From contig CAZLEC010000001.1 of the NCBI GenBank assembly GCA_964558245.1, positions 1 through 41,925 on the forward strand: 41,925 bases of DNA. The letters run 5' to 3'. The notes under the pieces were generated by a model, which did not search any database, was not told the origin of the DNA, and worked only from the letters and a program-made list of their open reading frames with translations. A program made the position numbers and the translations under genes. Positions 1-14,276 of this stretch are shown here, piece after piece (the stretch's first letter is position 1; the number at the start of each line of letters is the position of its first letter). This DNA comes from an uncultured Burkholderiales bacterium. Its GTDB lineage: Bacteria > Actinomycetota > Acidimicrobiia > IMCC26256 > PALSA-610.

Positions 1-648
1 CGACGGCACCCACTTCACGGCCGCGCCGAGGAACCCGCCCGATGCCAGCGGTCCCCACGCGCCGCCGAGGATCGCGAACAGCGACGTGGTGCCGCCCAGC
101 GCGGGGCCCATGGAGTCGACTGTGAGCAGGTGGCCGAGCACGATGCCGATCACCGCGAACGGCGCGAGCCCGACCAGCACGTAGCCCGTGAGCTCCAGCC
201 AGTGCACGGCGCTCAGGTGCACGCCCATCGAGATGCCCGCGGCGTAGAGCAACACGATCGACAGGGATGCGAGGGCGTAGCCGCTCAGGATCTTCGTCGC
301 GAAGTAGGTGCGCACCGGCAGGGGAGTGATGCGCAGTTGGCGGTGCCAGCCGACCGATCGTTCCTGGGCGATGCGCGCGCCGCCGGCGATCACCGCTGCC
401 ATCGAACCCCAACTCAACATGCCCACCATGTAGTAGGTCGCGAAGTTGATGCCGCCGAGCTTCTGGTGGCGGTTCGGACCGGCGACGAGGAAGAACAACA
501 GCAATGGGAACGCGAGCGAGAAGAGCATGAACCGCTTGTTGCGGAACGTCCGCAGCAGCTCGTAGCGCGTGTAGGTGAGGGGGCTCGGCTTCTTCGGCTT
601 CACCGGCGCGGTCGCCACGGTGCTCAGGGTCGCGGTGACTGACGTCAT
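1..648 (-). CDS. ABC-2 type transporter permease (N-terminal 216 codons; C-terminus lies beyond the window start)
   Basis: My own reverse-complement translation from ATG at 648-646 gives MTSVTATLSTVATAPVKPKKPSPLTYTRYELLRTFRNKRFMLFSLAFPLLLFFLVAGP... The frame stays open to position 1, so there is no stop in the window and the ORF track does not list it. The sequence is multi-span and hydrophobic, typical of ABC-2 permeases. Its start overlaps the stop of the upstream ATPase gene as ATGA (645-648). Confidence 0.8.
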   Translation of the reverse strand, partial: MTSVTATLSTVATAPVKPKKPSPLTYTRYELLRTFRNKRFMLFSLAFPLLLFFLVAGPNRHQKLGGINFATYYMVGMLSWGSMAAVIAGGARIAQERSVGWHRQLRITPLPVRTYFATKILSGYALASLSIVLLYAAGISMGVHLSAVHWLELTGYVLVGLAPFAVIGIVLGHLLTVDSMGPALGGTTSLFAILGGAWGPLASGGFLGAAVKWVPS

Positions 649-1655
649 TGCAGTGCCTCCTGCGTGATCAAGTTGTCGACGGGGTCGCCGGTGAGCGCGA
701 GGAACGCGGCCTCGAGGTTCGCGCCCAGCACTTCGATGTCGTGTGCGTCGGGGTACGCGGCGAGCAGCCCGCGCAACGCGGTGTCGGAGTCGGTGCAGGT
801 GAGGATCACGGCGTCGCCGTGCTGTTCGGCCGTCGCGACGCCGGCCAGCGCGCTGACCTTGTCCATCGGCGCGTTCGGGAGGGTCGCCCGGATCGACTTC
901 ATGCCCACGCGCGCTTTGATCTCGGTCGACGTACCGTCGGCCACGATCCGGCCCTGGGCCATGAGCACGATGCGGTCGGCGAACGCGTCGGCCTCTTCGA
1001 GGTAGTGCGTGGCGAAGATCACGGTCTTGCCGTCACGGGCGAAGTTGCGCATCGCCGACCAGAACGCGTGGCGGCCCTCCACGTCGAGCGCAACGGTCGG
1101 CTCGTCGAGCACGAGCAGTTCGGGATCGGCGACGATCGCGGTGGCGAACCGGACCCGTTGGGTCTGGCCCCCCGACAGCTTCTCCGTGCGCCGGTCGGCG
1201 ATGTCGGCCAGGCCGGTGAGCGCGAGGGCTTCGTCGACGCCGAGCGGGTTCGGGTAGAGCGAAGCGGTCAGCCGTACCAGCTCCCGGATGGTGAGCTGGC
1301 CGATGAGCGAGCCGGTCTGGAGCATCCCTCCGATGGCGCCCGCGGCCACCGCGTCGGTCGGATTCATCCCGAACAGCGCCACCTCGCCCCGGTCGGGTCG
1401 CGACAGGCCGAGCACCATGTCGATGGTGGTCGACTTGCCGGCCCCGTTCGGGCCGAGGATGGCGACGGTCTCGCCCGGCGCGATGTCGAGGTCGATGCCG
1501 CGAACGGCGTGGACCGGTCCGAATGACTTCTCCAGGCCGGTGAGCGAGATCCCGGCCCGCGGGGGTGAATACGTCGGCTGCATGCCTCGATCGTGCGCCT
1601 CCCCGGCGCTTCCGACCAGTCGCGGGCGTGACGAGTCGGGCATGACGAATGTCAT
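645..1655 (-). CDS. ABC transporter ATP-binding protein (ABC-2/DrrA-like exporter subunit)
   Basis: Walker A GPNGAGKST, ABC signature LSGGQTQR, Walker B LLVLDEPT and H-loop FATHYLEE are present. It is translationally coupled to the downstream permease. The start is uncertain: ATG 1655, or ATG 1583 (MQPTYSPP...). Confidence 0.92.
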   Translation of the reverse strand: MTFVMPDSSRPRLVGSAGEAHDRGMQPTYSPPRAGISLTGLEKSFGPVHAVRGIDLDIAPGETVAILGPNGAGKSTTIDMVLGLSRPDRGEVALFGMNPTDAVAAGAIGGMLQTGSLIGQLTIRELVRLTASLYPNPLGVDEALALTGLADIADRRTEKLSGGQTQRVRFATAIVADPELLVLDEPTVALDVEGRHAFWSAMRNFARDGKTVIFATHYLEEADAFADRIVLMAQGRIVADGTSTEIKARVGMKSIRATLPNAPMDKVSALAGVATAEQHGDAVILTCTDSDTALRGLLAAYPDAHDIEVLGANLEAAFLALTGDPVDNLITQEALQ

Positions 1656-1685
1656 GTATGCAGCGCGGCCGGGCCGCGCGTGCGA

Positions 1686-2030
1686 CTACGCGGTCTGTGC
1701 CACTCGGTTGGTCTCCAGTGCCGTACGCGACGAGCACGGGCTGCTCGGGTAGTGCGACGCGACCGTCACAACGTGCGTGTACGCCGCGGTGTGCATGCAT
1801 TCGGAGCTTCCGTGAACCACTTCGATGTCACCGCGAACGTGTGCGGGTTCCAGGACCACGGTCAGCTTGTGCGGGCTCCCGACCGATCCGAACGCGCTCT
1901 GGGCCACTGCGCCCAGGCCCGCGGACGCCGCGACGATCGCGAGCGCTGCGCACAGCAGGCGGCGGGTACGTCGCGGTGCCCGGCCCGATCCGGCCCCGTC
2001 GTGGTGGTTGTGCGCGGCGGCGGTGGTCAT
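1686..2030 (-). CDS. Small secreted protein of unknown function (His-rich N-terminus, twin-arginine-like signal)
   Basis: An internal ATG at 2030 within ORF 1686..2180 is preceded by GGAGGA 5 nt upstream (reverse complement of 2036-2041). The product starts MTTAAAHNHHDGAGSGRAPRRTRRLLCAALAIVAASAGLGAVAQSAFG, which reads as a charged n-region with TRRLL, a hydrophobic core and an Ala-rich cleavage region. It sits 30 nt upstream of the ABC ATPase gene on the same strand. I recognise no family. Confidence 0.55.
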   Translation of the reverse strand: MTTAAAHNHHDGAGSGRAPRRTRRLLCAALAIVAASAGLGAVAQSAFGSVGSPHKLTVVLEPAHVRGDIEVVHGSSECMHTAAYTHVVTVASHYPSSPCSSRTALETNRVAQTA

Positions 2031-2170
2031 CGTGATCCTCCGTGTCTCGGCGTCCGATCCGGTCGGATTCGCTGATCTCAGGATCCACCAAAGCCGGTGC
2101 GGCGTCCGTCGTCGACCCGACCGACGGTGTGTGTCGCCGCGCACACTCGAGCGCCCCGGCGACGCGACCG

Positions 2171-2261
2171 AGCCCGACACCCGTAGCGGATGTCGGGCCC
2201 TTCGGCGTCGGTGCTCAGTGGTGCCGATTCGATGTGATCGGGATGTGGAACGTCCGACCGG
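2171..2261. repeat. Copy A of a ~91-94 nt dispersed repeat (gene 3' end plus hairpin); partner at 9247-9340
   Basis: I aligned it by hand to 9247-9340 in the same orientation. Identical blocks are agcccgacaccc, gtagcgg, tgtcgggccc, gctcagtggtgccgattcg and cgtccgaccgg. Identity by eye is roughly 80-85 percent. Confidence 0.85.
2172..2198 (-). terminator. Stem-loop GCCCGACACCC-GTAGC-GGATGTCGGGC (11-bp stem, one mismatch), putative intrinsic terminator without a U-tract
   Basis: The inverted repeat is read directly from the sequence. It lies 17 nt past the stop (2215-2217) of the decayed minus-strand gene copy and is homologous to the hairpin at 9248-9275. Confidence 0.45.
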
Positions 2262-2552
2262 ATCGGTCGCCGTCTGGGAGAGGTGCGGGGTTCACCGGCA
2301 GTACCCGAGGGCGGTGAGCGTGCCCGGGTCGGCGAAGTTCTCAGCGGTCACGGTCCAACGGTGAGTCGTTTCGGCGGTCCAACCGAACGGCTCGACACCG
2401 GGGTAGGTCCTGTTCGTGAGAGCTCTTGCGTGGAAGCTCGCGAGCAGGCCCCCGAACACCAATGAGGTCCCCTTCGGGCAAGCAGCCGTCGCGCGTCCAC
2501 GGTGTCGGGGTCTCGGTCGTCGGCAGTACCGATGCAGTGTGCCGCCGCACAC
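2215..2552 (-). pseudogene. Truncated, frame-disrupted paralogue of the secreted-protein gene at 9294-10007
   Basis: Frame 1 (2215-2340) ends ...LPVNPAPLPDGDRSGRTFHIPITSNRHH*. The intact gene ends ...LPPLPVGQHV...GRTLQITVTPNRHH*. The similarity continues upstream only in another frame (ORF 2292..2552: ...CPKGTSLVFGG...TAENFADPGTLTALGYCR*, versus CSIPEGKWLVLTPGG...PADNILGLPAGPALTASDLY). The N-terminal ~125 codons, including the signal peptide, are absent. Confidence 0.55.
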
Positions 2553-2641
2553 ACTTCGGCCCCGTGCCCGGCCGTGCGTTCGCGGCGTCGTTCGCGGATC
2601 TTGTCGGCAGATCGGCGGTATTGCATGCGAGACTCCGACGC

Positions 2642-3289
2642 ATGGCGACGCGGCTGCTCGACTCGCTGGCCGAAGACGACCGGCGAACCGTGCTGGCCGC
2701 CGCGCGGCGGCGACGTTTCACCCGCGGCGAGGTGGTGTTCCACGACGGCGACCCCGGCGACACGTTGCACCTGATCGTGAAAGGCCACTTCGCGATCCGG
2801 ATCACCACTCCTTTGGGTGATGTCGCGACTGTGCGGGTGCTCGGCCCGGGTGAACATTTCGGTGAGCTCGCGGTGTTGGAGCCGGGCCCGCGGCGAGGGA
2901 GCGTGGTGTCGCTCGAAGCCGGCGAGACGATGAGCCTGCATCGCGACGACTTCGCCGGGCTGCGCGCAACCATGCCGGAGCTCGATCAGGTGCTGACCGC
3001 GGCGCTGGTGGTGGAGGTCCGCCGGCAGGCGTCGGCGTTGGTCGACGCGTTGTACGTTCCGGTCGAGCGGCGAGTGTGGCGACGGCTCGCCGACCTCGTC
3101 GAGCTGTACGGAGATGACTCTCCCGTTGTCATTCCGCTGACCCAGGACGACCTTGCGCAGTTGGCGGGCACGACTCGCCCGACAGCCAATCGCGTCCTGC
3201 GCACCGGTGAGGAACAGGGCGTCGTGGCACTGGCGCGGGGCCGGATCGAGGTGCTCGACCTCGCCGCGCTACAACGTCTCGCGCGCTAA
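2642..3289 (+). CDS. Crp/Fnr family transcriptional regulator (cNMP-binding domain plus C-terminal HTH)
   Basis: The start is ATG 2642 (MATRLLDSL...) within ORF 2426..3289. The cNMP-binding beta-roll motifs are FTRGEVVFHDGDPGDTLHLIVKG and GPGEHFGELAVL...RRGSVVS. The HTH reads LTQDDLAQLAGTTRPTANRVLRTGEEQGVV. Confidence 0.9.
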   Translation: MATRLLDSLAEDDRRTVLAAARRRRFTRGEVVFHDGDPGDTLHLIVKGHFAIRITTPLGDVATVRVLGPGEHFGELAVLEPGPRRGSVVSLEAGETMSLHRDDFAGLRATMPELDQVLTAALVVEVRRQASALVDALYVPVERRVWRRLADLVELYGDDSPVVIPLTQDDLAQLAGTTRPTANRVLRTGEEQGVVALARGRIEVLDLAALQRLAR

Positions 3290-3314
3290 ACCCGCGACCC
3301 TGAACGCGCGTCAC

Positions 3315-3339
3315 GCCCGACACGCACGGTGTGTCGGCC
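3315..3339 (+). terminator. Stem-loop GCCCGACAC-GCACGGT-GTGTCGGCC (7 contiguous bp plus a closing G-C), possible crp terminator or attenuator
   Basis: The inverted repeat is read directly from the sequence, 26 nt after the crp stop. It shares the GCCCGACAC arm with the hairpins at 2172 and 9248. Confidence 0.35.
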
Positions 3340-3530
3340 TCGGCACAGATCCGACACCGCGTTGATCGCACAGTGAGGGCTCGGCATGGCACGACTGCTG
3401 CGCAGCCGGGGAGGTGGGTATCGTGTCCGAGGCCCCGAAGAGAGCTCCTGGATCAGTCGCTCGGCGCCGCATCGAGGCGCCGGTGGGAACACCGCGAGGC
3501 TCGGGCCGGGCCGAGTGGGGGGAGACGCGA

Positions 3531-6500
3531 ATGGGAACCGTCACGTTCCTGTTCCTCGACGAGCCCGGCGACGGCGACGCGAGCCCCTCGCGCCGCGGTG
3601 TGTTGGCCGGCGACGTGCTGGCCGCAGTTCGCGCGTGCATCACGGCCTGGGGAGGCCACGAGCTCGATCTCACCGTCGACGGTTTGGGCGTGGTGTTCCC
3701 GAGCGCGGCCGCCGGGGTTGCGAGCGCGCGGGCGATGCAGCGCGCGGTGCGGACGCTGAATGGTGGAGGGCCGGGCGCGTTACGCGTCGGCGTGCACACG
3801 GGTGAGCCGCTGGCGATCCCCGGGGGCCGCTATTTCGGGGCGGCGGTATGGCTCGCGGCGCGGCTCCACAAGCGCGCGGCGCCGGGCCAGATCCTGGTCT
3901 CCGACACCGTGTTCGAGTTGCTCGATGCGACCGGCCGGGCTCGGTGCACGCCGGTCGGGTCGCTCGACCTGAAGGGCCTGAGCGACCGCGTCGTCGCGTT
4001 CGACGCGTCCTGGTCCGATGCCGGTATGCCGGCCGATGTCGACGTGGCCGGGCTGCGGACGGTCACCCTGATGACGGTCGACCAGGTGGGCTCGACCGCG
4101 CAGATCGACACGCTCGGCGACGAGTCGGCGCGCGCGATCCACGCCGCGTTGCTCGACGTGTTGCGCGAAGCGATCGGCGACCACGGCGGTCGAGAGGTGG
4201 AGTACACGGGTGACGGTTTGACTGCGATGTTCGATGCCGCGCTCGACGCGACGGGCTGCGCGGTCGCGATGCAGCAGGCCGCGTACCGCCATCGTTTGCG
4301 GTATCCGTCGGAGCAGGGCCTCGCGTTGCGTGTCGGGATCCAGAGCGCGGAAGCGGTCGCCGAGAATCGCGATTCTTGGACGGGCACTGCCCAACAAGCC
4401 GGCGCACTGTGCAGCGCGGCCGGCAACGGCGAGATCGTGGTGTCGCGGTTGGTGCGCGCGATCGCGGCGCCGCGCCGCATACACGTGTTCGAGCCGTTCG
4501 CCGAGGCCGAAGCGCCGGCCCGTGACGACGGCGCGCGGTTCTTGTTGCGTTGGGAACCGGAGCTCTCCGAGTTCAGCCTGCCGGCCGATCTCGTGGCGAA
4601 GCTGGGTCAGTTCGGATTCGTCGGCCGGCACGACGAGCTCGAACGGCTGGTGCGATTGTGGGCCGACGCGCGAGCGGGCGAGCCGCGCGTCGCGCTCGTG
4701 TCGGGTGGCGCGGGAATCGGGAAGTCGTCGCTCGCGGCGCACTTTGCCGAGATTGCGTGTGAAGGCGCGTCTACGATCGTGCTGTACGGCGCGTGCCGGT
4801 TGGGCCCACGCGACGACTACGAGCCGTTCGCCGACGCGCTTGCGCAGTACGTCTCGGCGACGTCGCGCGCGGATCTCCGCCGCCAAGTCGGAGCCCACGC
4901 GCCCGTGCTTGCGAGCGTGATCCCCGGCCTCGCGGCGCGCCTTCCCGACGTGCCCGGCGAGGTCGCGACCGGTGACGCCGAGGTGGCAGCAGTTGGTCGG
5001 GCGATCGAGGCGTTCGTTGCTGCGATCGCGCAGACCGCGCCGGTCCTGCTCGTGATCGACGATCTCCAGAACGCTGCTGCCTCGACACTTCGCGTGCTCC
5101 GCCAGGTGGCCACCACCGGCGGGTCGGTCGCCCTGATGGTCGTCGGTCTGTTCCGTGATCCCGTCGCGGGGCGTTCGCCGGTGCTCGACGCGCTCGGCGT
5201 CGACCCCGCGCGTCGCGACCAGACCGAGCACCTGGTGATCGAAGGTTTGTCCGACGATGACGTCGCCGTGCTCGTCGAGGCCGTCACACACGTCGCGCCG
5301 AGCGCCCTGACGCGCGACGCGATCGCCGCGCAGTCGGACGGCGTCCCGTACGCGGTGGTCGAGTCGGCCCGCTCGCAGATGGAGCAAGGCGTCACCTCGG
5401 ACCTTCGCCGCGCGATCGAGCAGGCCGACCACGCCCGGCTCGATCGCCGCGAGCTCCGTGAGGAGATCGCGCGCGGCGTCCTCGAGATCCAGCGGCTCCG
5501 CCAGCCGCTCGCCGCCCTGCCCGAGATCGCTGCCGGGAGCGTCGACCGCGACGGCACCCCACCCGCGCCCGGACCGTGTCCCTACCGCGGGCTGGAATCG
5601 TTCAAGGCCGGCGATGTGGAATGGTTCTTCGGGCGCGAGCAGCTCGTCGCCGAGCTCGTCGCGCATGTCGCGGGTTCGAAGCTCGTCGGCGTGATCGGCG
5701 CGTCGGGAAGTGGGAAGTCGTCGCTCGTGCGCGCCGGTCTGGTGCCCGCGCTCGACTCCGGCGCGCTGCCCGGCGCGGAGCAGTGGTTGAGCCTGGTCAT
5801 GACGCCGACCGCGCGGCCGCGGCAATCGCTCGCACTCGCGTGCGCAGCATCCGGCCGGATCAGCGGCGAGGCGGCACGCGACTTGCTCGAAGGCAGCGAG
5901 CTCGCACCACTGGTCGAGCGGCTCGTCGGGAGTGCCGGCGAGCGGGTCGTGCTGGTCGTCGACCAATGCGAAGAGCTCTTCATCGCCGCGTCCGAAGAAG
6001 AACGCGAACGGTTCGTCGACATGATCGTCGGCGCCGCCGCCGATCCCGGCGTTCCGATCACGCTGATCCTGGTGTTGCGCGCCGACTTCTACGGTGCGTG
6101 TGCCCAATATCCCGGCCTCGCCGATCGTCTCGAAGACAGTCAGGTGCTCGTCGGCGCGATGAGCGCCGACGAGATCCGCCGCACCATCGAGCTGCCCGCG
6201 CGTCACGCCGGGCTCGTGCTCGAATCCGGGTTCGCCGACGCCGTCATCGCCGATGTGAGCGGCGAGCCCGGCGGACTGCCGCTGTTGTCGACCGCGCTGC
6301 TCGAAACGTGGGCACGGCGGCGCGGGCGCAGCCTCACCCTGGCCGCGTACGCGGAGACCGGCGGGGTGCGCAGCGCCGTCGCGCGGCTCGCCGACAGCGT
6401 GTACGACGGGTTGGATCCTGCCGATCGCGATATCGCCCGGCGCATGCTGTTGCGTCTCGCGCGGCCCGGGAGCGACGACACCGTCGGCGACGTGCGCCGG

Positions 6501-9173
6501 CGGGCCCCACTCGGTGAGCTCGTCGCCGACGATCCCGCGGCGCAGCGCGTGCTCGGCCGGCTCGTCGAGCGGCGACTCGTGACCACCGACGAGCACACCG
6601 CCGAAGTTGCACACGAAGCCGTGCTGCGCGAATGGCCCCAGCTCCGGGAATGGCTCGACGACGACCGCGAGGGCCGGCGCATTCACCACCAGCTCGCCGA
6701 TGCGACCCACGAGTGGGAGAGCGCGGCACGCGATCCCGAGCACCTGTACCGAGGCGCGCGCCTGGCCGCCGCTGTCGACTACGCCACGATGCACGCGGCC
6801 GATCTGAACCCGCTGGAGCACGAGTTCCTCGCGGCCGGGCGGGCCCGAGCGACCGCCGAGCTTGACGCGTCGCAGCGCAGCGCCCGAAGGTTCCGCCGCC
6901 TCACGGCCGGTCTCGTGGTCATCCTCGTCGTCGCGCTGATCGCCGGCTCCTTCGCGCTCATCCAACGCGAAGACGCCCGCAGTCAACGCAACACCGCTCG
7001 CACTCAGCGCGACCGCGCGACGCAACAAGCCCGCCTGGCCAATGCGAGCCGGCTCGCGACCGTCGCCGTGAGCGGCGCGCCAGACGATCTCTCCCGTTCC
7101 GCGTTGCTCGCGATCGAGGCGAACCGGCTCGACGACAACGCCCAGACCCGAGGCGCGATCCTCAGCGTCGCCGAAGACGCGGCACCGGTGCGCGAGATCA
7201 TTCACGGGTCGTGGGAAACAGCCGCGATGAGCGCGGACGGCCGAACGGTCGCGACGGTGGGTGCTCGGGGCATCTCGATCGTCGACTTGAAGACCCGGCG
7301 CAGCCGCTCCATCAGCCGGCGGAACTTCAGCGGCATCCGAAGCGTGAGTTTCTCGTCCGACGGCAAACTCCTCGCGCTCGGCGGCAACGACGTCGAGATC
7401 CTCGATGCGCACTCGGGCGCTCCCGCCCGCGCGCCGTTCCGCTTCACCGACCAGACCGGGCCGGGGCGCACCCTCGTCGTGCACGTTCGATTCAATCCCG
7501 ACGGCTCGAGCATCGCGGCCATCGACAACAACGGCGGCGGATACTTGTGGTCCTTGGCGAACGGCGCGGAGCTGGCACATTTCGCCACCGGCAGCTACGG
7601 AAGCGGCTCCAGCAACGTCGTGTTCAGCCCCGACGGAAAGTGGCTCACGCTCACCGACAGTCATGCGGTCGTGTACAGCGCGCACTCGTTCCGGGCGGGC
7701 CAACTCGAGCCGCGATACCGCGCACAGCCGTACGTCGGCTTCAGTGAGTTCGACGTCGCGTTCTCTCCCGACGGCAACCGGTTCGCGGCCGCGACCGGCG
7801 GCGGCCAGATCCTCTTTCGGGATTCCGCGACAGGCGCGGAGGTCGGCCCGGCGATCTCGACCGGAACGGGAGTCGGGAGACTGGCGTTCAGTCCTGACGG
7901 CACCGCCATCGCGGGAACCCGCGCCGGCAGGATCTCGGTTTGGGACACTCGGGAGAGTGTGGGGGGCAGTCAGTCGGGCGAGCTCCTCGACGACACTCTG
8001 CTCGGCGGGACGCGCGCGACGGTGGCGTTGAGCTACGCGCCCGACGGCGCGTTGGTCGTGCTGACGACTGCCGAGATCGTGGTGCTCGATCCGCCGGCGC
8101 GACTCGGCACGTTCATTGCGCCGTCGAGCCCGATTCGGGGTTACGGCATCGAATCGCTGGCGGCCGCTCCCGACGGTCGCTCGATCGCGGCCGCCGACGG
8201 GCTCGGACGAGTACGGGTCTGGGACTTGGCCTCCGGCACGCTCGAACGAACGATCAACGCGACGACGCCGGCCGAGAGCGCGCAAGCCGTTGCGTACCAG
8301 CCCGGCACCGGGACGATCGTGGTCGGCTCGGGTGACGGAACCGTCACAGCGTGGGATCCGCGAACCGGTCGGCAGATCCACAGCCCACTTCGTTTGACAC
8401 CTCCGAGCGTGCCCGTGAACGGCAACGTGTTCTCTCCCGGAGACGGTGTGTTCAGTGTTGCGTTCGACGCCGGCGGCCGTACCCTCGTTGCTGCGACCGG
8501 GGACGGCCGCGTCGTGGTCATCGACCCGCGTACCTGGAAAGTTCGCCGGACCATCCACCTCGTCAAGGACGTGATCGAGTCGACGAGCACGCTGGCGATA
8601 AGTCCCGACGGCAACACCGTCGCGCTGGGCGCGACCGGGGTCGTGGAAGTCTCCGATATCGACGGAACACACCGCCGACAGGTCAACGTCGGACCGTTCG
8701 CAATCGAGACGCTTGCCCTCGCACCCAACGGCTCGCTTCTCGCCGCCGGGCTCGAAGACGGTCGCGTCGTACTGGCAAACCTCGCGACCGCCCACGGAGC
8801 GGGAACCATCGTGTCGAACCACGGTGGTGCCATCGCGCTCGCGTTCGACGCCAAAGGCACGACGCTCGCCGTCGGCGGCGACGACGGCGACGTCACCCTC
8901 TGGAGCGTCGCCGACCGGCAAGCAGTCGGTCCGCCCCTCTCGTCTTCCCAATCGCTCGGCATCTCCGGGCTGGCCTTCTCGCCCGACGGCAACAGCCTGT
9001 TCGCGGCCGCGGGCGACCTCTCGGTCGTGCGCTACGACCTCCGACCAACCGAACAGATCGAACGACTCTGCGCCCTGATCGGCCGCAACCTCAGCCGCGC
9101 CGAACGCGAGACATATCTCGCAGATCCGACTTCGGGTAGCCAGACCTGCCCGCAATGGCCGGCCGGTACCTGA
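3531..9173 (+). CDS. Giant multidomain signalling protein: 2 x class III cyclase-homology domain, AAA_16-type STAND ATPase, nSTAND/NACHT-like NTPase, hydrophobic span, 14 WD40-like blades (1,880 aa)
   Basis: ATG 3531 is preceded by GGGGGGAG (3517-3524).
- CHD1 (3531-4013): VTFLFLDEPGDG, TVDGLGVVF, LRVGVHTGE, AVWLAARL.
- CHD2 (4056-4448): VTLMTVDQVGST, YTGDGLTAMF, LRVGIQSAE.
- First ATPase: FVGRHDELERL, Walker A GGAGIGKS (4704-4727), Walker B VLLVIDDL (5043-5066).
- Second NTPase: CPYRGLESFKAGDVEWFFGRE, GASGSGKS (5697-5720), VVLVVDQCEE (5946-5975).
- Hydrophobic LTAGLVVILVVALIAGSFALI (6900-6962).
- Fourteen xFSPDGxxLA-type blades (7215-9041). Confidence 0.93.
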   Translation: MGTVTFLFLDEPGDGDASPSRRGVLAGDVLAAVRACITAWGGHELDLTVDGLGVVFPSAAAGVASARAMQRAVRTLNGGGPGALRVGVHTGEPLAIPGGRYFGAAVWLAARLHKRAAPGQILVSDTVFELLDATGRARCTPVGSLDLKGLSDRVVAFDASWSDAGMPADVDVAGLRTVTLMTVDQVGSTAQIDTLGDESARAIHAALLDVLREAIGDHGGREVEYTGDGLTAMFDAALDATGCAVAMQQAAYRHRLRYPSEQGLALRVGIQSAEAVAENRDSWTGTAQQAGALCSAAGNGEIVVSRLVRAIAAPRRIHVFEPFAEAEAPARDDGARFLLRWEPELSEFSLPADLVAKLGQFGFVGRHDELERLVRLWADARAGEPRVALVSGGAGIGKSSLAAHFAEIACEGASTIVLYGACRLGPRDDYEPFADALAQYVSATSRADLRRQVGAHAPVLASVIPGLAARLPDVPGEVATGDAEVAAVGRAIEAFVAAIAQTAPVLLVIDDLQNAAASTLRVLRQVATTGGSVALMVVGLFRDPVAGRSPVLDALGVDPARRDQTEHLVIEGLSDDDVAVLVEAVTHVAPSALTRDAIAAQSDGVPYAVVESARSQMEQGVTSDLRRAIEQADHARLDRRELREEIARGVLEIQRLRQPLAALPEIAAGSVDRDGTPPAPGPCPYRGLESFKAGDVEWFFGREQLVAELVAHVAGSKLVGVIGASGSGKSSLVRAGLVPALDSGALPGAEQWLSLVMTPTARPRQSLALACAASGRISGEAARDLLEGSELAPLVERLVGSAGERVVLVVDQCEELFIAASEEERERFVDMIVGAAADPGVPITLILVLRADFYGACAQYPGLADRLEDSQVLVGAMSADEIRRTIELPARHAGLVLESGFADAVIADVSGEPGGLPLLSTALLETWARRRGRSLTLAAYAETGGVRSAVARLADSVYDGLDPADRDIARRMLLRLARPGSDDTVGDVRRRAPLGELVADDPAAQRVLGRLVERRLVTTDEHTAEVAHEAVLREWPQLREWLDDDREGRRIHHQLADATHEWESAARDPEHLYRGARLAAAVDYATMHAADLNPLEHEFLAAGRARATAELDASQRSARRFRRLTAGLVVILVVALIAGSFALIQREDARSQRNTARTQRDRATQQARLANASRLATVAVSGAPDDLSRSALLAIEANRLDDNAQTRGAILSVAEDAAPVREIIHGSWETAAMSADGRTVATVGARGISIVDLKTRRSRSISRRNFSGIRSVSFSSDGKLLALGGNDVEILDAHSGAPARAPFRFTDQTGPGRTLVVHVRFNPDGSSIAAIDNNGGGYLWSLANGAELAHFATGSYGSGSSNVVFSPDGKWLTLTDSHAVVYSAHSFRAGQLEPRYRAQPYVGFSEFDVAFSPDGNRFAAATGGGQILFRDSATGAEVGPAISTGTGVGRLAFSPDGTAIAGTRAGRISVWDTRESVGGSQSGELLDDTLLGGTRATVALSYAPDGALVVLTTAEIVVLDPPARLGTFIAPSSPIRGYGIESLAAAPDGRSIAAADGLGRVRVWDLASGTLERTINATTPAESAQAVAYQPGTGTIVVGSGDGTVTAWDPRTGRQIHSPLRLTPPSVPVNGNVFSPGDGVFSVAFDAGGRTLVAATGDGRVVVIDPRTWKVRRTIHLVKDVIESTSTLAISPDGNTVALGATGVVEVSDIDGTHRRQVNVGPFAIETLALAPNGSLLAAGLEDGRVVLANLATAHGAGTIVSNHGGAIALAFDAKGTTLAVGGDDGDVTLWSVADRQAVGPPLSSSQSLGISGLAFSPDGNSLFAAAGDLSVVRYDLRPTEQIERLCALIGRNLSRAERETYLADPTSGSQTCPQWPAGT

Positions 9174-9246
9174 ACCGGCGGCGACGATGGAGGCTATGCA
9201 ACCTTGTTGTCGGCGTCGTTCGCGTTGCGTCACGGCAACGCGAAGA

Positions 9247-9340
9247 AGCCCGACACCCGGTAGCGGGTGTCGGGCCCCTTCGAAGGTCTGCGCTCAGTGG
9301 TGCCGATTCGGCGTGACCGTGATTTGCAACGTCCGACCGG
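9247..9340. repeat. Copy B of the dispersed repeat (3' end of gene 9294-10007 plus its hairpin); partner at 2171-2261
   Basis: Hand alignment with 2171-2261; see copy A. Confidence 0.85.
9248..9275. terminator. Perfect 11-bp stem-loop GCCCGACACCC-GGTAGC-GGGTGTCGGGC between convergent genes (likely bidirectional terminator)
   Basis: The inverted repeat is read directly from the sequence. It lies 75 nt after the stop of the plus-strand giant gene (9173) and 19 nt after the stop of minus-strand gene 9294-10007. Confidence 0.55.
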
Positions 9341-10007
9341 GCGTCCAGCCGGCATTGACTCCCGTGTCGTACCGAGCGAACTCGGTGATCACGTGCTGAC
9401 CGACGGGCAGTGGCGGCAACTCCACGAGGTACAAGTCACTCGCGGTGAGCGCGGGCCCGGCGGGCAGCCCGAGGATGTTGTCGGCGGGCAACTCGAGCGT
9501 CTGGATCGACGTCGTCCGGGTCCGGTCGAGGTGCCGCAACGGGTTGCCGTCGACCGTCACGTCGACCTCGCCGATGTCGTCGGTTGCGGCTTTCGCTTCG
9601 GCCCGAAGGACACTTGCGCTGTCCGTGGGATTGTCCTGGGTTTCGATGGTGCCCCCCGGGGTCAGCACGAGCCACTTGCCCTCGGGGATCGAGCACGTCG
9701 TCTGTTGATTGACGTCACTCGCGGCTGGCAGGAACCACACGGGTCCCTGTTCGTCGGGGGTGCAGATCGTCGGGTCGGCGAGTGGGTTGTCGGCAGTCGG
9801 GAGGTCGAACGACCACTGTGTCCACGCTGCGGCCTCGCTGTTCTGTGAGGAGTGCGAGAACGAATCCGACTGACCTCCCTGTGCACACGCGCCTGCGACC
9901 GACGCCGTAGCCAACGCAAGTGCGCACGCGCCGGCGAGCACCCCGGCGACTTTCGAGGAACGTCGATGACGCGCCACCCATCGTGTATGGCTCTTCTCCG
10001 TGATCAT
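9294..10007 (-). CDS. Secreted protein or lipoprotein of unknown function
   Basis: An internal ATG at 10007 is preceded by GGAAGGA. The product starts MITEKSHTRWVARHRRSSKVAGVLAGACALALATASVAGACAQ, which has a charged n-region, a hydrophobic core and Cys-containing lipobox-like sites. I recognise no family. It has a decayed paralogue at 2215-2552. Confidence 0.75.
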   Translation of the reverse strand: MITEKSHTRWVARHRRSSKVAGVLAGACALALATASVAGACAQGGQSDSFSHSSQNSEAAAWTQWSFDLPTADNPLADPTICTPDEQGPVWFLPAASDVNQQTTCSIPEGKWLVLTPGGTIETQDNPTDSASVLRAEAKAATDDIGEVDVTVDGNPLRHLDRTRTTSIQTLELPADNILGLPAGPALTASDLYLVELPPLPVGQHVITEFARYDTGVNAGWTPGRTLQITVTPNRHH

Positions 10008-10169
10008 GCTGTTTCCTTCCATAGTCGGCTTCATGACTGTCGCTATCACTGTGCGGGAGTGGCCGCAATAAATCCGTGGTTTCGCGCACGCCCGCACCGT
10101 GTCCGCCGACACAGACCGGGCAACTCGTCCGCCTCGGGAGCGGAACGGTGCCTCCGGCGGTGTGTCCCG

Positions 10170-11132
10170 CTATTGGATTCGCGCAAGCTCCGCGAGGAGG
10201 TCGTCGTCGAGTGGCCTCGCCCTGAAACCGACGTCGAGGTCGACCTCGGCGGCGGACCGCGCGCCGACGAGCACGGTGGTGACCGCCGGGTGGCGCATCG
10301 CGAACTGCAGCGCGGCGGCTCCGAGCGGGATGCCGCGGGCGCGGCACGCGTCGCGGAGGCGTCGCGCGCGCTCGAGCACTGCGCCGGTGGCCGCGGCGTA
10401 GTCGTAGGTCGGGTGCGCGTCGGGATCGATGAGCACGCCGGTGTTGAACACGCCTCCGATGATCACCCCGACGCCCCGTGCCGCGCACCGCGTCAGGAGG
10501 TCGGCCCCACTGCGATCGAGGAGCGAGTAGCGGCCGGCGAGCAGCACGCAATCGAGGTCGACGCGCTCGACGAATCGCTCGAGCATCGCGGACTGGTTCA
10601 TCCCGCACCCGACCGCGCCCACGACGCTTTCGTCGCGTAGCCGCAAGAGGGTCGGAAACGCGGTGCGGAGCGCGTCGGCTTCGTGGGCGTCGGGGTCGTG
10701 CACGAGCGCAACGTCGATGCGGTCGGTGCCGAGACGGGTCAGGCTCGCTTCGAACGATCGCATGATCCCGTCGTGCGAGAAGTCGAACTCGGGCTCGAGG
10801 TCGCCGACATCGGTGAAGATGGTCGCCGTTCGTGCGGGCCCGGCCGGTCGCAACACTCTCCCGACTTTGGTCGACAAGACGTATTCACCTCGCGGTCGGC
10901 CGCGCAACGCCCGTCCGACGCGGCGCTCGCTCACGCCGTGCCCGTCGAGTGGCGCGGTGTCGAAGTAGCGAACGCCCGCGTCCCAGGCCGCGTCGACGGT
11001 CGCGCGCGCGTCTTCGTCGGAGACTCCGGAGAACAGGTTGCCGATCGGCGCGCACCCGAGTCCGAGTGCCGTGACCGCGGGTCCGCGCCGGCCGAGCGGC
11101 CGCGGAGACGACCAGTCGTCGATCTTCGTCAC
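10170..11132 (-). CDS. Aldo/keto reductase, D-threo-aldose (L-fucose) 1-dehydrogenase-like
   Basis: GTG start at 11132-11130 overlaps the fucD stop (GTGA). The product VTKIDDWSSPRPLGRRGPAVTALGLGCAPIGNLF...AWDAGVRYFDTAP...LSTKVGR...DVALVHDPD...IIGGVFNTG has the AKR fold pattern. The upstream part of ORF 10170..11846 is out-of-frame shadow inside fucD. Confidence 0.88.
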   Translation of the reverse strand: MTKIDDWSSPRPLGRRGPAVTALGLGCAPIGNLFSGVSDEDARATVDAAWDAGVRYFDTAPLDGHGVSERRVGRALRGRPRGEYVLSTKVGRVLRPAGPARTATIFTDVGDLEPEFDFSHDGIMRSFEASLTRLGTDRIDVALVHDPDAHEADALRTAFPTLLRLRDESVVGAVGCGMNQSAMLERFVERVDLDCVLLAGRYSLLDRSGADLLTRCAARGVGVIIGGVFNTGVLIDPDAHPTYDYAAATGAVLERARRLRDACRARGIPLGAAALQFAMRHPAVTTVLVGARSAAEVDLDVGFRARPLDDDLLAELARIQ

Positions 11133-12418
11133 CGCCGCCACACGGCGCCGTCGGGGAACGCGAGTGCCGCGTACGAGTCGGGGAGCAGATCCACCGAGTA
11201 GCCGGCCGCGGTGGGCAGCACGTAGCGGCCGTCGCGCGCGACTGCCGGGTGCACGAAGTGCTCGTGGAGATGGTCGGCGAACTCGGTCGTCCGGTCGTCG
11301 AGTGAACCGCTCACGCACACGTAGTCGATCGCGCAGAGATGCTGCACGTACTCGCACAGGCCGAGCCCGCCGGCGTGCGCGCACACGGGAACGCCGAACT
11401 TGGCGGCGAGCAGGAGCACGGCCAACACCTCGTTGACCCCGCCGAGCCGGCACGCGTCGATCTGGCAATAGTCGATGGCCTCGGCCTGCATCAGCTGCTT
11501 GAACACCACACGGTTCGCCGCGTGCTCTCCGGTGGCGACGCCGACGGGCGCGACCGCGCGGCGAATGGCCGCGTGCCCGAGGATGTCGTCGGGGCTCGTG
11601 GGCTCCTCGATCCACCGGAGGCCGAACGGCTCGAGGTGGCGCATGCGCTCGATCGCTTCGCCGACGTCCCACACCTGATTGGCGTCGGCCATGAGCGGGA
11701 GATCGCCGATCTCCTCGCGCATCACCTCGCAACGGCGAACGTCGCCGGCGAGGTCGAGGCCGACCTTGGTCTTGAAGCAGCGCCAGCCGTCGGCGAGCGC
11801 CCGGCGGCACAGGTCGCGCACGGTCGCTTCGTCGTAGCCGAGCCAACCGGCCGACGTGAGGTACGCGGGATACCCCGTGCGCTCCAGCTCGGCGACGCGT
11901 TCGGCGCGTGTCGGTGCGAGCGCACGCAGCATGTCGAGCGCTTCATCCGGGTCGAGCACGTCGGTGAGGTAGCGAAAGTCGACGCTCGCGACGAGCTGCT
12001 CGGGCGAGAGGTCGGACACGAGGCGCCAGAGCGGCTTGTGTTCGACGCGCGCCCACAGATCCCAGACCGCGTTCACGATCGCCGCCGTCGCGAGGTGGAT
12101 GACGCCCTTTTCCGGTCCGAGCCAGCGGAGCTGCCCGTCGTTGGTGAGGCGCCGCCAGAACGCGGCCCCGTCGGCGACGAGCTCCTCGAGCTCGCGCCCG
12201 ACGACCAGTGGCGCGAGCTGCTCGATCGCCGCGCAGCACAGGTCGTTGCCGCGACCCACGGTGAACGTCATGCCGACACCCTCGTGCGGGCCGTCGGTCG
12301 CGAGGAACACGTACGCGCCCGAGTAGTCGGGGTCTTGGTGCACCGCATCGGAGCCGGCGAGCGTGATCGACGTCGGGGCCCGGATGTCGAGCGTGCGGGC
12401 ACCGGTGATGCGGGTCAT
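11129..12418 (-). CDS. fucD: L-fuconate dehydratase (enolase superfamily, mandelate racemase subgroup)
   Basis: The full-length 429-aa product has the FucD/ENOSF1-type N-terminus TLDIRAPTSITLAGSDAVHQDPDYSGAYVFLATDG...MTFTVGRGND. The enolase-superfamily barrel motifs KTKVG, ADANQVWD, WIEEPTSPDD, ATGEH and QIDACRLGG are present. Confidence 0.93.
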   Translation of the reverse strand: MTRITGARTLDIRAPTSITLAGSDAVHQDPDYSGAYVFLATDGPHEGVGMTFTVGRGNDLCCAAIEQLAPLVVGRELEELVADGAAFWRRLTNDGQLRWLGPEKGVIHLATAAIVNAVWDLWARVEHKPLWRLVSDLSPEQLVASVDFRYLTDVLDPDEALDMLRALAPTRAERVAELERTGYPAYLTSAGWLGYDEATVRDLCRRALADGWRCFKTKVGLDLAGDVRRCEVMREEIGDLPLMADANQVWDVGEAIERMRHLEPFGLRWIEEPTSPDDILGHAAIRRAVAPVGVATGEHAANRVVFKQLMQAEAIDYCQIDACRLGGVNEVLAVLLLAAKFGVPVCAHAGGLGLCEYVQHLCAIDYVCVSGSLDDRTTEFADHLHEHFVHPAVARDGRYVLPTAAGYSVDLLPDSYAALAFPDGAVWRR

Positions 12419-12424
12419 CTCGGC

Positions 12425-12446
12425 AGCATGTTAGAAGGAGCATGTT
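12425..12446. promoter_or_regulatory. Direct repeat AGCATGTT-N6-AGCATGTT in the 54-nt divergent fucD / SDR intergenic region (candidate operator)
   Basis: The two 8-mers at 12425-12432 and 12439-12446 are read directly from the sequence. This is the only non-coding DNA between the two divergent operons. Confidence 0.3.
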
Positions 12447-12472
12447 GGCGGCAATGTGAGGGGAGCGGAGCG

Positions 12473-13177
12473 ATGCCGGAACGGGTGGTAGTGGTCACGG
12501 GATCGGTCGGCGGGATCGGCTCGGCCATCGTCGACCACTTCACCGCGCGCGGCGACACAGTGGTCGGTCTCGACCTGCTCGACGGCGTCGACGTGTCGCG
12601 ACCCGACGATTGCGCCGCCGCGGTCGCACGGATCTTCGCGGAACACGGCCGCATCGACGTGCTCTGCAACAACGCGGGCGTCGGAGCCACCGGCGACGTC
12701 GTGGCGTCTTCGCCCGAGGAGTGGCAACGCGTGTTCGGGGTCAACGTGTTCGGTGTCGCGAACATGTCGCGCGCGGTGCTGCCCACGATGCGCGCCGCCG
12801 GGCGGGGTGCGATCGTCAACACCTGTTCGGTGGTCGCTTCGGTCGGCTTGGTCGATCGTGCGGTGTACTCGGCGTCGAAAGGTGCGGTGCTCGCCTTGAC
12901 CCGCGCCATGGCCGCCGACGAGATCGCCCACGGGATACGCGTCAACTGCGTGTCGCCGGGCACGGTCTCGAGCCCGTGGGTCGAACGCACCGTCGCCGCC
13001 CTCCCGGATCCCGAGGCCGGGTTCGAGGCGCTCCGCCGCCGGCAGCCGCTCGGGCGCATGGTCTCCTGCGCGGAGGTCGCCGCCGCGGTCGCGTATCTCG
13101 CCGACGACACGACCTTCACGACCGGCGCCGACTTCCTGCTCGACGGCGGGATCACCGGCGTGCGCATCGTCGAGTGA
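12473..13177 (+). CDS. Short-chain dehydrogenase/reductase, 2-keto-3-deoxy-L-fuconate dehydrogenase-like
   Basis: ATG 12473 follows GAGGGGAGCGGAG. The SDR motifs are TGSVGGIG (TGxxxGIG), NNAG and the catalytic YSASK. The gene sits in a fuconate-cluster context. The 5' 1.1 kb of ORF 11339..13177 is antisense shadow of fucD. Confidence 0.9.
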   Translation: MPERVVVVTGSVGGIGSAIVDHFTARGDTVVGLDLLDGVDVSRPDDCAAAVARIFAEHGRIDVLCNNAGVGATGDVVASSPEEWQRVFGVNVFGVANMSRAVLPTMRAAGRGAIVNTCSVVASVGLVDRAVYSASKGAVLALTRAMAADEIAHGIRVNCVSPGTVSSPWVERTVAALPDPEAGFEALRRRQPLGRMVSCAEVAAAVAYLADDTTFTTGADFLLDGGITGVRIVE

Positions 13178-13193
13178 TCGTCGAGGCGGAGTC

Positions 13194-14276
13194 GTGACGC
13201 TGCGCGTCGCTTTGGTCGGCGGTCCGATGTACGACCGGCTGTACGAGACGTTCGCACCGGGTGAGGTCGAGATCGTGGTTCACGCCGACCATCCGACCCT
13301 CAACCGGCGGGTGGCCGAGATGCTCGCGGCCGGTGAGCGCATCGACGTGCTCGCGACCCACTCGAAGTACGCGCCGTCGCAATCGCAATGGCTGCTCCCG
13401 CTCGACGACCTCGTCGACGACGCGGCCGTCGCGCCGTTGGCGCCGCGCGCGGTCGAGCTGTGTCGATTCGACGACGCGCAGCTCTGCTTACCCCGCCTGA
13501 TCGACGTGCGGGTGCTGTGGGTTCGCTCCGATCGGGTCGACCCCGCGCCCGACACGTGGGACGCGCTCCTTGCCTCCGACACCGTGTTCGGCTTCCCGGG
13601 GCGGGAGTCCGGCTTGTTCGGCAGCTTCTTCGAGCTCGTGGTCGGTCTCGGAGGTGGGCTGTTCGACGCCGAGGTGCACCCGACGATGGCCACCCGCGAA
13701 GCCGAGCAGGCGATCGAGACGCTCTGCCGCCTCGCGGCGCGCGCTCCCGCCGACCTCGTCGACTGGCACTACGACGAGGTCGATGCCGCGTTGCTCGACG
13801 GACGCGTCGACGCGGCCGCCGCGTGGCCCGGCGGATGGGGTGCGATACGCACGTCGGCGCTCGCCGACCGGCTGGTGCCGCATCCCTATCCGGCCGGTCC
13901 GGCTCGGCGGGTCTCCTACGCCGGCTGCCACGCGTGGGCCGTCCCGAGAACCTGCGCAGACGTCGACGGCGCGCTCGCGCTGCTCCGGCGATTGCTGGAC
14001 ACCGAGCGGCAAGCGATCGACGCGGCCGGCGGGAGCATCTGCGCGCACCGCGGAGCACTCGCCGAGGTCGAGCCGCACGGCGAGATCGACCGCCGTCGTC
14101 TCGAGATCACGCGCCAGATGATCGACGACGCCATGATCACGTACCCGCCGCTCGTCCGGTTCCCCGAGATCGAAGACGCCGGATGGTCGGCGATCCGCGA
14201 CGCGCTCCGCGGCCAGTGCTCCCCGGCCGCGGCCGCGCGTGCTATCCAGTCGGTGTCGGAGCAAATCCTTGCGTAA
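13194..14276 (+). CDS. Periplasmic solute-binding-protein-like protein lacking any signal peptide
   Basis: GTG 13194 follows GGCGGAG. The sequence begins directly with the first SBP beta-strand (LRVALVGGPMYDRL), followed by DVLATHSKY, LPRLIDVRVLWVRSD...TWDALL and GFPGRESGLFGSFFEL. This is family-1 SBP-like by eye. There is no hydrophobic leader or lipobox. Confidence 0.7.
   Translation: MTLRVALVGGPMYDRLYETFAPGEVEIVVHADHPTLNRRVAEMLAAGERIDVLATHSKYAPSQSQWLLPLDDLVDDAAVAPLAPRAVELCRFDDAQLCLPRLIDVRVLWVRSDRVDPAPDTWDALLASDTVFGFPGRESGLFGSFFELVVGLGGGLFDAEVHPTMATREAEQAIETLCRLAARAPADLVDWHYDEVDAALLDGRVDAAAAWPGGWGAIRTSALADRLVPHPYPAGPARRVSYAGCHAWAVPRTCADVDGALALLRRLLDTERQAIDAAGGSICAHRGALAEVEPHGEIDRRRLEITRQMIDDAMITYPPLVRFPEIEDAGWSAIRDALRGQCSPAAAARAIQSVSEQILA

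Follow-up and report, generated by a model that had tools for sequence, protein, structure and literature searches.

A giant STAND protein with tandem cyclase-homology domains and its linkage to a Crp-family gene in an Acidimicrobiia-type actinobacterium

We analyzed a 41,925-nucleotide (nt) stretch of contig CAZLEC010000001.1 (assembly GCA_964558245.1), called the window below, in which a Crp/Fnr-family gene is followed on the same strand by a giant gene. The product of the giant gene joins two cyclase-homology domains (D1 and D2), two STAND-type NTPases (AAA_16 and nSTAND1), a predicted transmembrane helix, and WD40-like propellers in one chain (Table 1). Distant relatives of the giant also adjoin a Crp-type gene; thus, the giant and the Crp probably form one signaling circuit. 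Because the Crp is found throughout its lineage, the giant is best seen as an accessory input into a resident circuit of cyclic mononucleotide (cNMP) and Crp, not as half of a private pair. Modules of a cyclase plus a Crp are already known, as are cyclase-AAA_16 fusions; what is new here, as a variant of these, is the combination in the giant family.

Word-indexed searches yielded five full-architecture relatives of the giant (P0002 to P0006; 34-38% identity to it) plus the fragment P0121. An exhaustive profile search added at least 12 further clusters at 50% identity, with proteins of 1,600-1,730 amino acids (aa), which match the whole profile across the cyclase, AAA_16, and their junction. 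The architecture cyclase-AAA_16-nSTAND1-transmembrane helix-WD40 therefore marks a distinct family of at least 14 clusters at 50% identity. The giant of the window falls into a single 90% cluster with seven members, on contigs of up to 161 kb from the same population as the window. Beyond this cluster and the fragment L090, no relative exceeded 38% identity. L090 (metagenome contig Ga0182022_1331311, positions 1-1881) is a 1.9-kb piece without flanks, closely related to the N terminus of the giant over three frames; its frame breaks are probably sequencing frameshifts.

Seen from the giant, a Crp-type gene (cNMP_binding plus HTH_Crp_2) was present within 3 kb in the window and at the loci of all four informative relatives (P0002, P0003, P0004, and P0006). 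The five giants are 31-60% identical in pairwise comparison, and their flanks are otherwise unrelated, Crp/cNMP genes being the only shared neighbors; the Crps have a mutual identity of just 26-55%. The arrangement differs from locus to locus. At L001 (P0002), a same-strand Crp gene lies 1.8 kb upstream, an MFS gene standing in between, and at L002 (P0006, Naasia sp. SYSU D00057), it lies 2.8 kb upstream; at both, one or two opposite-strand genes stand between the Crp gene and the giant. At L003/L004 (P0003), the Crp gene begins 9 nt past the stop codon of the giant. At L005/L006 (P0004), a same-strand run consists of the Crp gene, an MFS-cNMP_binding fusion, an 88-aa open reading frame (ORF), the giant, and a cNMP_binding-patatin gene. 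In L005, the ATG of the latter overlaps the stop codon of the giant (TGATG), and a cNMP_binding-aldehyde dehydrogenase gene follows after a further 3.5 kb. The cNMP domains next to the other giants have canonical phosphate-binding cassettes throughout, including all four at L005. P0005 and P0121 were left out of the count, since their contigs end too near the gene (P0005 is cut 355 nt upstream); a 71-aa fragment upstream of P0121 was considered and is not a Crp.

Two control sets were used for comparison. The first comprised 80 generic cyclase or cyclase-AAA_16 loci listed by a pattern scan of genomes, mostly from Chloroflexota (~1.05 Mb, no family member among them). An iterated cNMP-domain hidden Markov model detected a Crp-type factor in none of the 80 loci and any cNMP-binding ORF in 5 of them. 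The second set (n = 5) held the nearest other architectures: the two nearest stand-alone cyclase-AAA_16 proteins and three nSTAND1-WD40 proteins, P0007 (SARP plus cyclase), P0050 (cyclase without AAA_16), and P0041 (kinase). No Crp-type gene was found beside any of the five, the three nSTAND1-WD40 proteins having been inspected within 8 kb. Fisher's test gave p = 3e-8 for the Crp type and p = 8e-6 for any cNMP gene against the 80 loci; the comparison with the five nearest other architectures gave p = 0.004. Thus, with positive family loci and negative controls, linkage to cNMP readers is a specific property of the subfamily of the giant.

At L005, four different cNMP-binding proteins (the Crp and the MFS_3, patatin, and aldehyde dehydrogenase fusions) surround the giant between positions 2904 and 16126. 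An MFS_3-type transporter adjoins the Crp gene at both L001 (4251-5507) and L005 (3591-5270), with 33% identity over 368 aa, and is fused to a cNMP domain in L005; no homologue of it was present in the window. Small ORFs upstream of the giants were not conserved.

Seen from the Crp, the picture is different. More than 120 close orthologue clusters were found, with 68-90% identity and nearly all with proteins of 215 aa; the named clusters derive from Acidimicrobiia or Acidimicrobiales metagenome-assembled genomes. By this distribution, the window Crp is to be regarded as a conserved lineage regulator and not as the private partner of the giant. At L094, where an orthologue of the window Crp was examined, tblastn turned up no more than a cyclase-domain match of 56 aa elsewhere, and the Crp gene was the sole stretch of DNA similar to the window; the Crp thus does not need the giant. 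The sequence-only reading of this region had proposed a candidate self-contained module and had named conservation of the pair in related genomes as one of its checks. The self-contained module is not borne out, since the Crp belongs to a widespread orthologue group that almost always lacks the giant. Conservation holds from the giant (all four informative relatives) and fails from the Crp (more than 120 clusters, mostly without a giant, and L094): the strict version of the pairing falls, and the broader one, in which the giant family goes with cNMP readers, stands.

Within 10 kb of the Crp, L094 (positions 1-14118) also contains a convergent 160-aa ORF with a weak Guanylate_cyc hit that overlaps the 3' end of the Crp gene, a Guanylate_cyc+AAA_22+HTH_77 protein, an nSTAND1+AAA_16+TPR gene, an IS240-type transposase, and a stand-alone propeller protein whose C-terminal tail contains Cys and resembles that of the giant. 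Variable STAND and cyclase genes may tend to collect around this Crp, whose neighborhood would then be a hotspot for them.

A PDB sequence search aligned both D1 and D2 to the Mycobacterium avium cyclase Ma1120 and to Rv1900c. We aligned the two domains with their relatives and Ma1120 using MAFFT and use the residue numbering of Ma1120, in which K101 and D157 set the substrate, A164 takes the place of the usual Asn, and R168 serves as the transition-state Arg (PMC4215837). Both metal-binding Asp residues are in D2 (TVDQVGST and YTGDG); the first-Asp motif of D1 is degenerate and shortened. The Arg168 position holds Arg in D1 and Ala in D2, and the phosphate-binding Lys is retained in D1 (LKG) and lost from D2. 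The Asn position is occupied by Trp in D1 and Gln in D2, and the Lys101 position by Asp in D1 and Glu in D2. At the Asp157 position, D1 has Arg, and the residue of D2 depends on the alignment: MAFFT places Ser there, with a one-residue gap just downstream and an Asp one column earlier, and the gap-free HMMER alignment to Ma1120 puts this Asp under D157, which gives a Glu/Asp pair. The Lys-Asp specificity pair of adenylyl cyclases was found in neither domain (Asp/Arg in D1; Glu/Ser in D2 according to MAFFT).

Half-domain scores against the single-domain relative P0003 were higher for D1 in the C-terminal half (161 versus 136 for D2) and higher for D2 in the N-terminal half (194 versus 116 for D1), and the tandem protein P0002 showed the same half-domain pattern. 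Such a split of the catalytic residues between D2 and D1 in two tandem proteins is expected only with selection on one composite site. Judged from their residues, the two domains form a pseudo-heterodimer with complementary losses and one composite site at most, to which D2 would contribute the metal ligands and D1 the Arg, the Lys, and the specificity residues. In mammalian adenylyl cyclases, C1 and C2 also show complementary loss of catalytic residues and share a single active site. The cyclase pair of the sequence-only reading was therefore correct as to two class III cyclase-homology domains at the N terminus of the giant and incorrect if understood as two enzymes. The putative composite site may be catalytically active, with a cyclic nucleotide as its product. 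Ma1120 is active with Ala at the Asn position, and in A164N its activity is lowered or lost (PMC4215837); a missing Asn thus need not mean inactivity.

An AlphaFold model of aa 1-352 (pLDDT 69.7, pTM 0.53) showed a cyclase fold in both domains. Foldseek aligned it to Ma1120 and Rv1900c with TM scores of 0.82-0.88, in keeping with the class III cyclase fold, and the best E-values were obtained with the two-domain chains of AC9 and soluble adenylyl cyclase (sAC). The interdomain geometry of the model is unreliable, so the pseudo-heterodimer reading rests on the residue pattern.

Residues around the active site were also compared across the family. In 12 single-domain clusters, both metal Asp residues and Arg168 are invariant, and the Lys101 position is Asp or Glu in all of them (P0001 and P0002 apart). 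Their Asp157 position holds Gly (seven clusters), Arg (three), or Ser or Thr, and the Asn position of single-domain members is Val. Canonical Lys/Asp occurs only in a small subgroup (P0005, P0121, and P0286). The Asp/Arg pair of the window is shared by P0280, P0283, and P0289; to our knowledge, this pair has no characterized counterpart. Where an acidic residue takes the Lys position and Gly the Asp position, the pair is reminiscent of Glu-Gly in Cya2, a bacterial guanylate cyclase, and K101E/D157G had the best guanylate cyclase activity of the Ma1120 mutants made (PMC4215837). Since the adenine-specifying Lys is replaced by Asp or Glu in the family, the product of the Crp-linked giants may be other than cyclic AMP (cAMP).

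The Crp protein matched Pfam cNMP_binding (PF00027; aa 23-108, E = 1.4e-20, 73.5 bits against a cut-off of 27.5) and HTH_Crp_2 (PF13545; aa 144-213, E = 3.8e-16, 59.2 bits against a cut-off of 27). It thus combines the N-terminal beta-roll and the C-terminal Crp-type winged helix-turn-helix (HTH) of the Crp/Fnr family. The GC content of its codon positions (0.79/0.47/0.82) agrees with an ATG start at 2642, and by the same measure, the open frame 5' of this ATG looks noncoding. Structures of Mycobacterium tuberculosis CRP (Rv3676) were the top solved relatives in a PDB search (E = 8e-27, 32.6% identity); the level of a CRP equivalog was missed (61 bits for NCBIfam PRK11753 against a cut-off of 266). 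In the alignment of the phosphate-binding cassettes, FGELAVLEPGPRRGSVVS of the window Crp with FGELSIFDPGPRTSSATT of M. tuberculosis CRP, the Glu that contacts ribose and the Arg that contacts phosphate are retained. Across 120 orthologues, the cassette reads GEL...PR[R/C/S]GS, with the Glu, the Arg, and the Gly-Ser constrained and the position after the Arg variable.

CAP-type signatures for cAMP are RS or RT after Glu72 (Arg82-Ser83) and, on the C-helix, Thr127-Ser128 in CAP or Thr-Asn in Rv3676 (PMC10187061). The C-helix pair is Leu-Ser/Ala in orthologues of the window Crp and Leu-Ser/Thr in the Crps adjoining other giants, which also have a canonical R[ST]A end of the cassette. The recognition helix of CAP is RETVGR (PMC10187061), from which TRPTANRVLR of the window Crp deviates at the Glu position; a TGTGA-type site is therefore unexpected. 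Altogether, the pocket appears compatible with cNMP binding, although it is no canonical cAMP-CRP pocket.

Of the statements made in the sequence-only reading about the gene pair, a Crp/Fnr-type protein with beta-roll and HTH ending at 3289 was confirmed by the two Pfam matches; the start of the giant 241 nt downstream on the same strand (ATG at 3531) was confirmed as well. A transcription factor as the presumed output and an NLR-like module as the presumed input agree with the domain anatomy (cNMP_binding and HTH_Crp_2; nSTAND1 and WD40). The beta-roll that it called apparently intact keeps the Glu and the Arg; the residue after the Arg and the C-helix pair differ from the CAP signatures and are discussed below.

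The cyclase region of the giant itself gave a weak, partial match to Pfam Guanylate_cyc (PF00211; 35.9 bits against a cut-off of 21.9). AAA_16 and nSTAND1 follow each other in series (4617-6737) with a coiled-coil-like linker between them. The nSTAND1 match (PF20703) had E = 9.8e-126 and covered 378 of 379 profile positions; with its intact Walker A motif and C-terminal propellers, the protein belongs to this clade. The Walker A motif of nSTAND1 is intact in every relative aligned. The Walker A Lys of AAA_16, intact in the window giant, is Val in P0003, P0004, and P0006, so that in some family members the first NTPase may be an adaptor that has degenerated. A hydrophobic 19-mer at ~aa 1126 sits between nSTAND1 and the propellers, with a hydrophobic segment at the corresponding position in 6 of 6 aligned relatives. 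The predicted helix divides the putatively cytoplasmic cyclase/STAND half from ~700 aa of WD40/PD40-like propellers and, since it is conserved in these six, the propeller sensor may be extracytoplasmic.

These features suggest a two-gene signaling unit of an Acidimicrobiia-type actinobacterium. The giant would be a membrane-anchored, NLR-like switch in which the WD40 propellers beyond the transmembrane helix sense, nSTAND1 and AAA_16 switch, and the tandem cyclase gives the output. A ligand would induce NTP-dependent STAND oligomerization and thereby activate the cyclase site; the composite site would produce a cyclic mononucleotide, and the Crp-family protein encoded 241 nt upstream would bind it and alter transcription. 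We infer that the giant is the sensing partner and that the signal runs from it to the Crp. That a STAND-gated sensor cyclase feeds the resident Crp circuit, possibly by a nucleotide other than cAMP, is a proposal for which we judge the chances to be about even. A more specific form of it is tentative and, in our estimation, rather doubtful: the Crp-linked giants would make a non-cAMP nucleotide (cGMP or a pyrimidine cNMP) as an orthogonal NLR-like messenger, read by the neighboring Crp with altered base contacts and by the MFS exporter, the patatin lipase, and the aldehyde dehydrogenase.

Several observations weigh against a signal passing from the giant to the Crp. The cyclase site of the window has neither the Lys/Asp pair nor the Asn and carries Asp, Arg, and Trp instead, and we know of no characterized enzyme with this set. 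AlphaFold did not settle on a C1/C2-like packing of D1 and D2 (root-mean-square deviation of ~16 Å to AC9 and sAC). In the window Crp, the residue following the cassette Arg is Arg and not the usual Ser or Thr, and the adenine-contact positions of the C-helix are Gln-Ala, compared with Thr127-Ser128 in CAP, a departure from both CAP and Rv3676. The Crp orthologue group is far commoner than the giant and almost always occurs without it; the orthologue at L094, 83% identical, is a case with no giant at the locus. The family linkage is based on five inspected loci only. Finally, no operator-like palindrome is common to the upstream regions of giants or Crps at the five family loci or to the window and L094.

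Parts of the proposed circuit are known from other systems. In Rhodospirillum centenum, the gcyB-gcyC-cgrA operon combines guanylate cyclases with a Crp-type cGMP receptor, and its promoter carries a CAP site (PMC10187061). As in the window, a class III cyclase gene adjoins the gene of a Crp-family receptor and transcription factor, so that the messenger could be made and read locally. In contrast to the giant, the R. centenum cyclases are separate, small, and without STAND, WD40, or transmembrane input; the organisms are unrelated, and CgrA keeps the CAP signatures RT and TS where the window Crp has RR and QA. Adjacency of a cyclase gene and a Crp gene across lineages, which characterizes modules of the gcyBC-cgrA type, was found at 5 of 5 family loci but is not reciprocal.

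Cyclase-AAA_16 fusions were common in the protein searches. The proteins with TPR or LuxR-type HTH ends (P0103-P0120, ~1,090 aa) and the Guanylate_cyc+AAA_22+HTH_77 protein of L094 have, like the giant, an N-terminal class III cyclase fused to AAA_16, with Val or Ile in place of the canonical Asn. In contrast to the giant, these proteins retain Lys/Asp, contain a single cyclase domain and a single STAND module, and lack nSTAND1, the transmembrane helix, and the WD40 part; the nearest stand-alone members have no Crp neighbor. Rv0386 of M. tuberculosis is an example of this signaling type. Actinobacterial nSTAND1-transmembrane-WD40 proteins with XRE-HTH, SARP/BTAD, or kinase N termini share the core, the helix, and the propellers with the giant (27-34% identity over ~63% of it for most hits). 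Their output is fused and usually DNA-binding, whereas the giant has cyclase and AAA_16 domains at this place and a separate Crp gene; the members examined had no Crp neighbor. Mammalian C1/C2 and sAC resemble the giant in having two cyclase-homology domains per chain with complementary residue loss. The giant differs in the order of the domains (C2-like, then C1-like), in its noncanonical specificity and Asn residues, and in the predicted packing, which does not match. A literature search found no description of the combination seen in the giant family: a WD40 protein anchored in the membrane, with two STAND modules and a cyclase as output, a tandem of the C1/C2 type in some members, Asp or Glu throughout in place of the Lys, and invariable linkage to cNMP-binding genes.

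The sequence-only reading had likened the pair to Pycsar and CBASS. The likeness to Pycsar holds at the domain level, a class III-like cyclase beside proteins with cNMP-binding domains, but the effector here is a transcription factor and not a TIR or transmembrane killer, and the cyclase is embedded in an 1,880-aa STAND protein. PADLOC scored the giant with 19 bits (E = 1.8e-4) for PycC and the Crp with 36 bits for PycTIR, the latter covering its cNMP domain only; the window contains no TIR or transmembrane effector, and neither protein matches a model of the CD-NTase (cGAS/DncV-like) synthase that marks CBASS (PADLOC and Pfam). With domain-level hits only, membership in a known defense system was rejected.

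The direction of the wiring might also be reversed: the lineage-wide Crp would answer cNMP from other cyclases and control transcription of the giant, or both directions would operate as a feedback loop. This would fit the wide occurrence and high conservation of the Crp without the giant, the setting of the L094 orthologue, which has a transposase and further variable STAND and cyclase genes around it, the perfect 7-bp palindrome in the spacer between Crp and giant, and the CAP site of the gcyB-gcyC-cgrA promoter (PMC10187061). It leaves unexplained, however, why Crp linkage is confined to this cyclase-bearing subfamily and is not seen in the SARP, kinase, and plain cyclase-nSTAND1 relatives, and why three nontranscriptional cNMP-binding proteins surround the giant at L005; moreover, no other locus shares the palindrome, and in the window, loose matches to it are about as frequent as expected by chance. 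On this evidence, we consider reverse wiring unlikely. Another view is that the cyclase-like pair is a pseudoenzyme that serves the STAND protein as a nucleotide-binding or oligomerization module, the Crp linkage reflecting co-regulation or a shared hotspot. The noncanonical residues at the Lys, Asp, and Asn positions of the window giant and its low, partial Pfam score (35.9 bits) speak for this, and conflict systems of actinobacteria and cyanobacteria are reported to include inactive cNMP cyclase domains (PMC7159879). Against it stand the invariance of the two metal Asp residues and the Arg over ~14 clusters, down to 31-37% identity, the complementary partition of catalytic residues between D1 and D2, and linkage specifically to cNMP-binding proteins of four output types; Ma1120 is also an example of an active cyclase without the Asn (PMC4215837). 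We hold the pseudoenzyme to be quite unlikely.

An anti-phage or conflict system of Pycsar logic would have the NLR-like sensor make cCMP, cUMP, or another cNMP for cNMP-binding effectors, with the Crp as one arm. In conflict systems of actinobacteria and cyanobacteria, cNMP cyclase domains have been noted as outputs, occasionally linked to CRP-like cNMP factors (Kaur et al., PMC7159879), and nSTAND1 was defined within counter-invader systems by the same group (PMC8195603). In the giant family, the translational coupling of the cNMP-patatin gene to the giant at L005 and specificity residues that are not purine-like point the same way. Such a system appears very unlikely, however, given the weak, domain-level PADLOC hits, the transcription factor in place of any toxic effector in the window, the ordinary metabolic and transport genes in the flanks, and the core-like conservation of the Crp.

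If the giant does signal to the Crp, a bacterial NLR-like (STAND) switch would have a diffusible cyclic nucleotide as its output, as opposed to an effector or DNA-binding domain in the same chain. Two usually separate fields, sensing by STAND/NLR proteins and control of transcription by cNMP and Crp, would be joined, and bacteria would have a natural pseudo-heterodimeric cyclase of the C1/C2 type, a compact two-gene system, and a family whose specificity residues (Asp/Gly and Asp/Arg) are unusual. With an orthogonal messenger, the pathway would lead from a bacterial NLR by a nucleotide to several effectors, a route so far undescribed. If one of the rival explanations is right, the giant would be an ordinary accessory sensor gene beside a conserved regulator.

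The spacer between the two genes was scanned for transcription signals. No sigma-70 promoter or intrinsic-terminator consensus was found in it by a consensus scan. Its palindrome could form a hairpin 28 nt past the Crp stop codon, which is weak (-16.6 kcal/mol, z -1.6), and a third CCGACAC lies 14 nt beyond the palindrome. A structured RNA or riboswitch in the spacer was rejected (fold z -0.27, no Rfam match). The hairpin 3' of the giant is far more stable (-34.9 kcal/mol, z -7.2), and none of 200 shuffled sequences was equally stable. The weak spacer hairpin and the very strong 3' hairpin are consistent with transcription that runs on from the Crp gene into the giant, but they are no proof of it.

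Loose matches to the spacer palindrome in the window numbered 10, with 9.1 expected. The heptamer CCGACAC occurs 33 times in the window (16.8 expected; reached in 0 of 100 shuffles), for which a codon or composition effect is possible, and one more inverted heptamer pair lies inside the terminator hairpin (9250-9273). Positions 9208-9282, between the giant and the convergent ORF 9294-10112, hold two strong hairpins that overlap each other (z -4.3 and z -7.2); these are probably a bidirectional terminator.

Table 1. Features of the Crp-giant region and their positions in the window
Feature	Position	Strand	Basis
Crp/Fnr-family gene, 215 aa (cNMP-binding beta-roll and winged HTH)	2642..3289	+	Pfam, PDB, codon GC, orthologues
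Phosphate-binding cassette FGELAVLEPGPRRGSVVS, aa 73-90	2858..2911	+	Aligned to M. tuberculosis CRP FGELSIFDPGPRTSSATT
DNA-recognition helix TRPTANRVLR, aa 178-187	3173..3202	+	Near-invariant in 120 orthologues
Spacer, 241 nt, with perfect 7-bp palindrome CCGACAC-N7-GTGTCGG (3317-3337) and third half-site (3351-3357)	3290..3530	.	Sequence scan
Giant gene, 1,880 aa; cyclase-cyclase-AAA_16-nSTAND1-transmembrane helix-WD40	3531..9173	+	ATG 3531, Pfam
Cyclase-homology domain D1, aa 1-168, C2-like, degenerate N-terminal half	3531..4034	+	PDB sequence and alignment
Cyclase-homology domain D2, aa 169-350, C1-like	4035..4580	+	PDB sequence and alignment, fold search
First STAND-type NTPase AAA_16, aa 363-537, Walker A GGAGIGKS intact	4617..5141	+	Pfam, motif scan
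Second STAND NTPase nSTAND1, aa 684-1069, Walker A GASGSGKS	5580..6737	+	Pfam, motif scan
Single predicted transmembrane helix, ~aa 1122-1146	6894..6968	+	Kyte-Doolittle 19-mer maximum 2.84
WD40/PD40-type beta-propeller region, presumed sensor	7110..9080	+	Many Pfam propeller families; best stretches aa 1488-1846
Terminator-like hairpin 3' of the giant's stop	9241..9282	.	19-nt arms, 89% complementary

The ORFs that directly flank the pair (1686-2364 and 9294-10112) have no Pfam match and an ambiguous coding signal; in 1686-2364, either strand may be the coding one. The wider flanks are ordinary and encode an ABC ATPase, an aldo/keto reductase, an enolase-superfamily enzyme, and a solute-binding protein. 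An antisense ORF opposite the giant (3780-9233, minus strand, 1,817 aa) was rejected as a gene, since the plus frame has the domain hits and a coding-type codon GC of 0.73/0.54/0.84. Long antisense open frames are frequent in high-GC DNA, and the G+C content of the window is ~70%.

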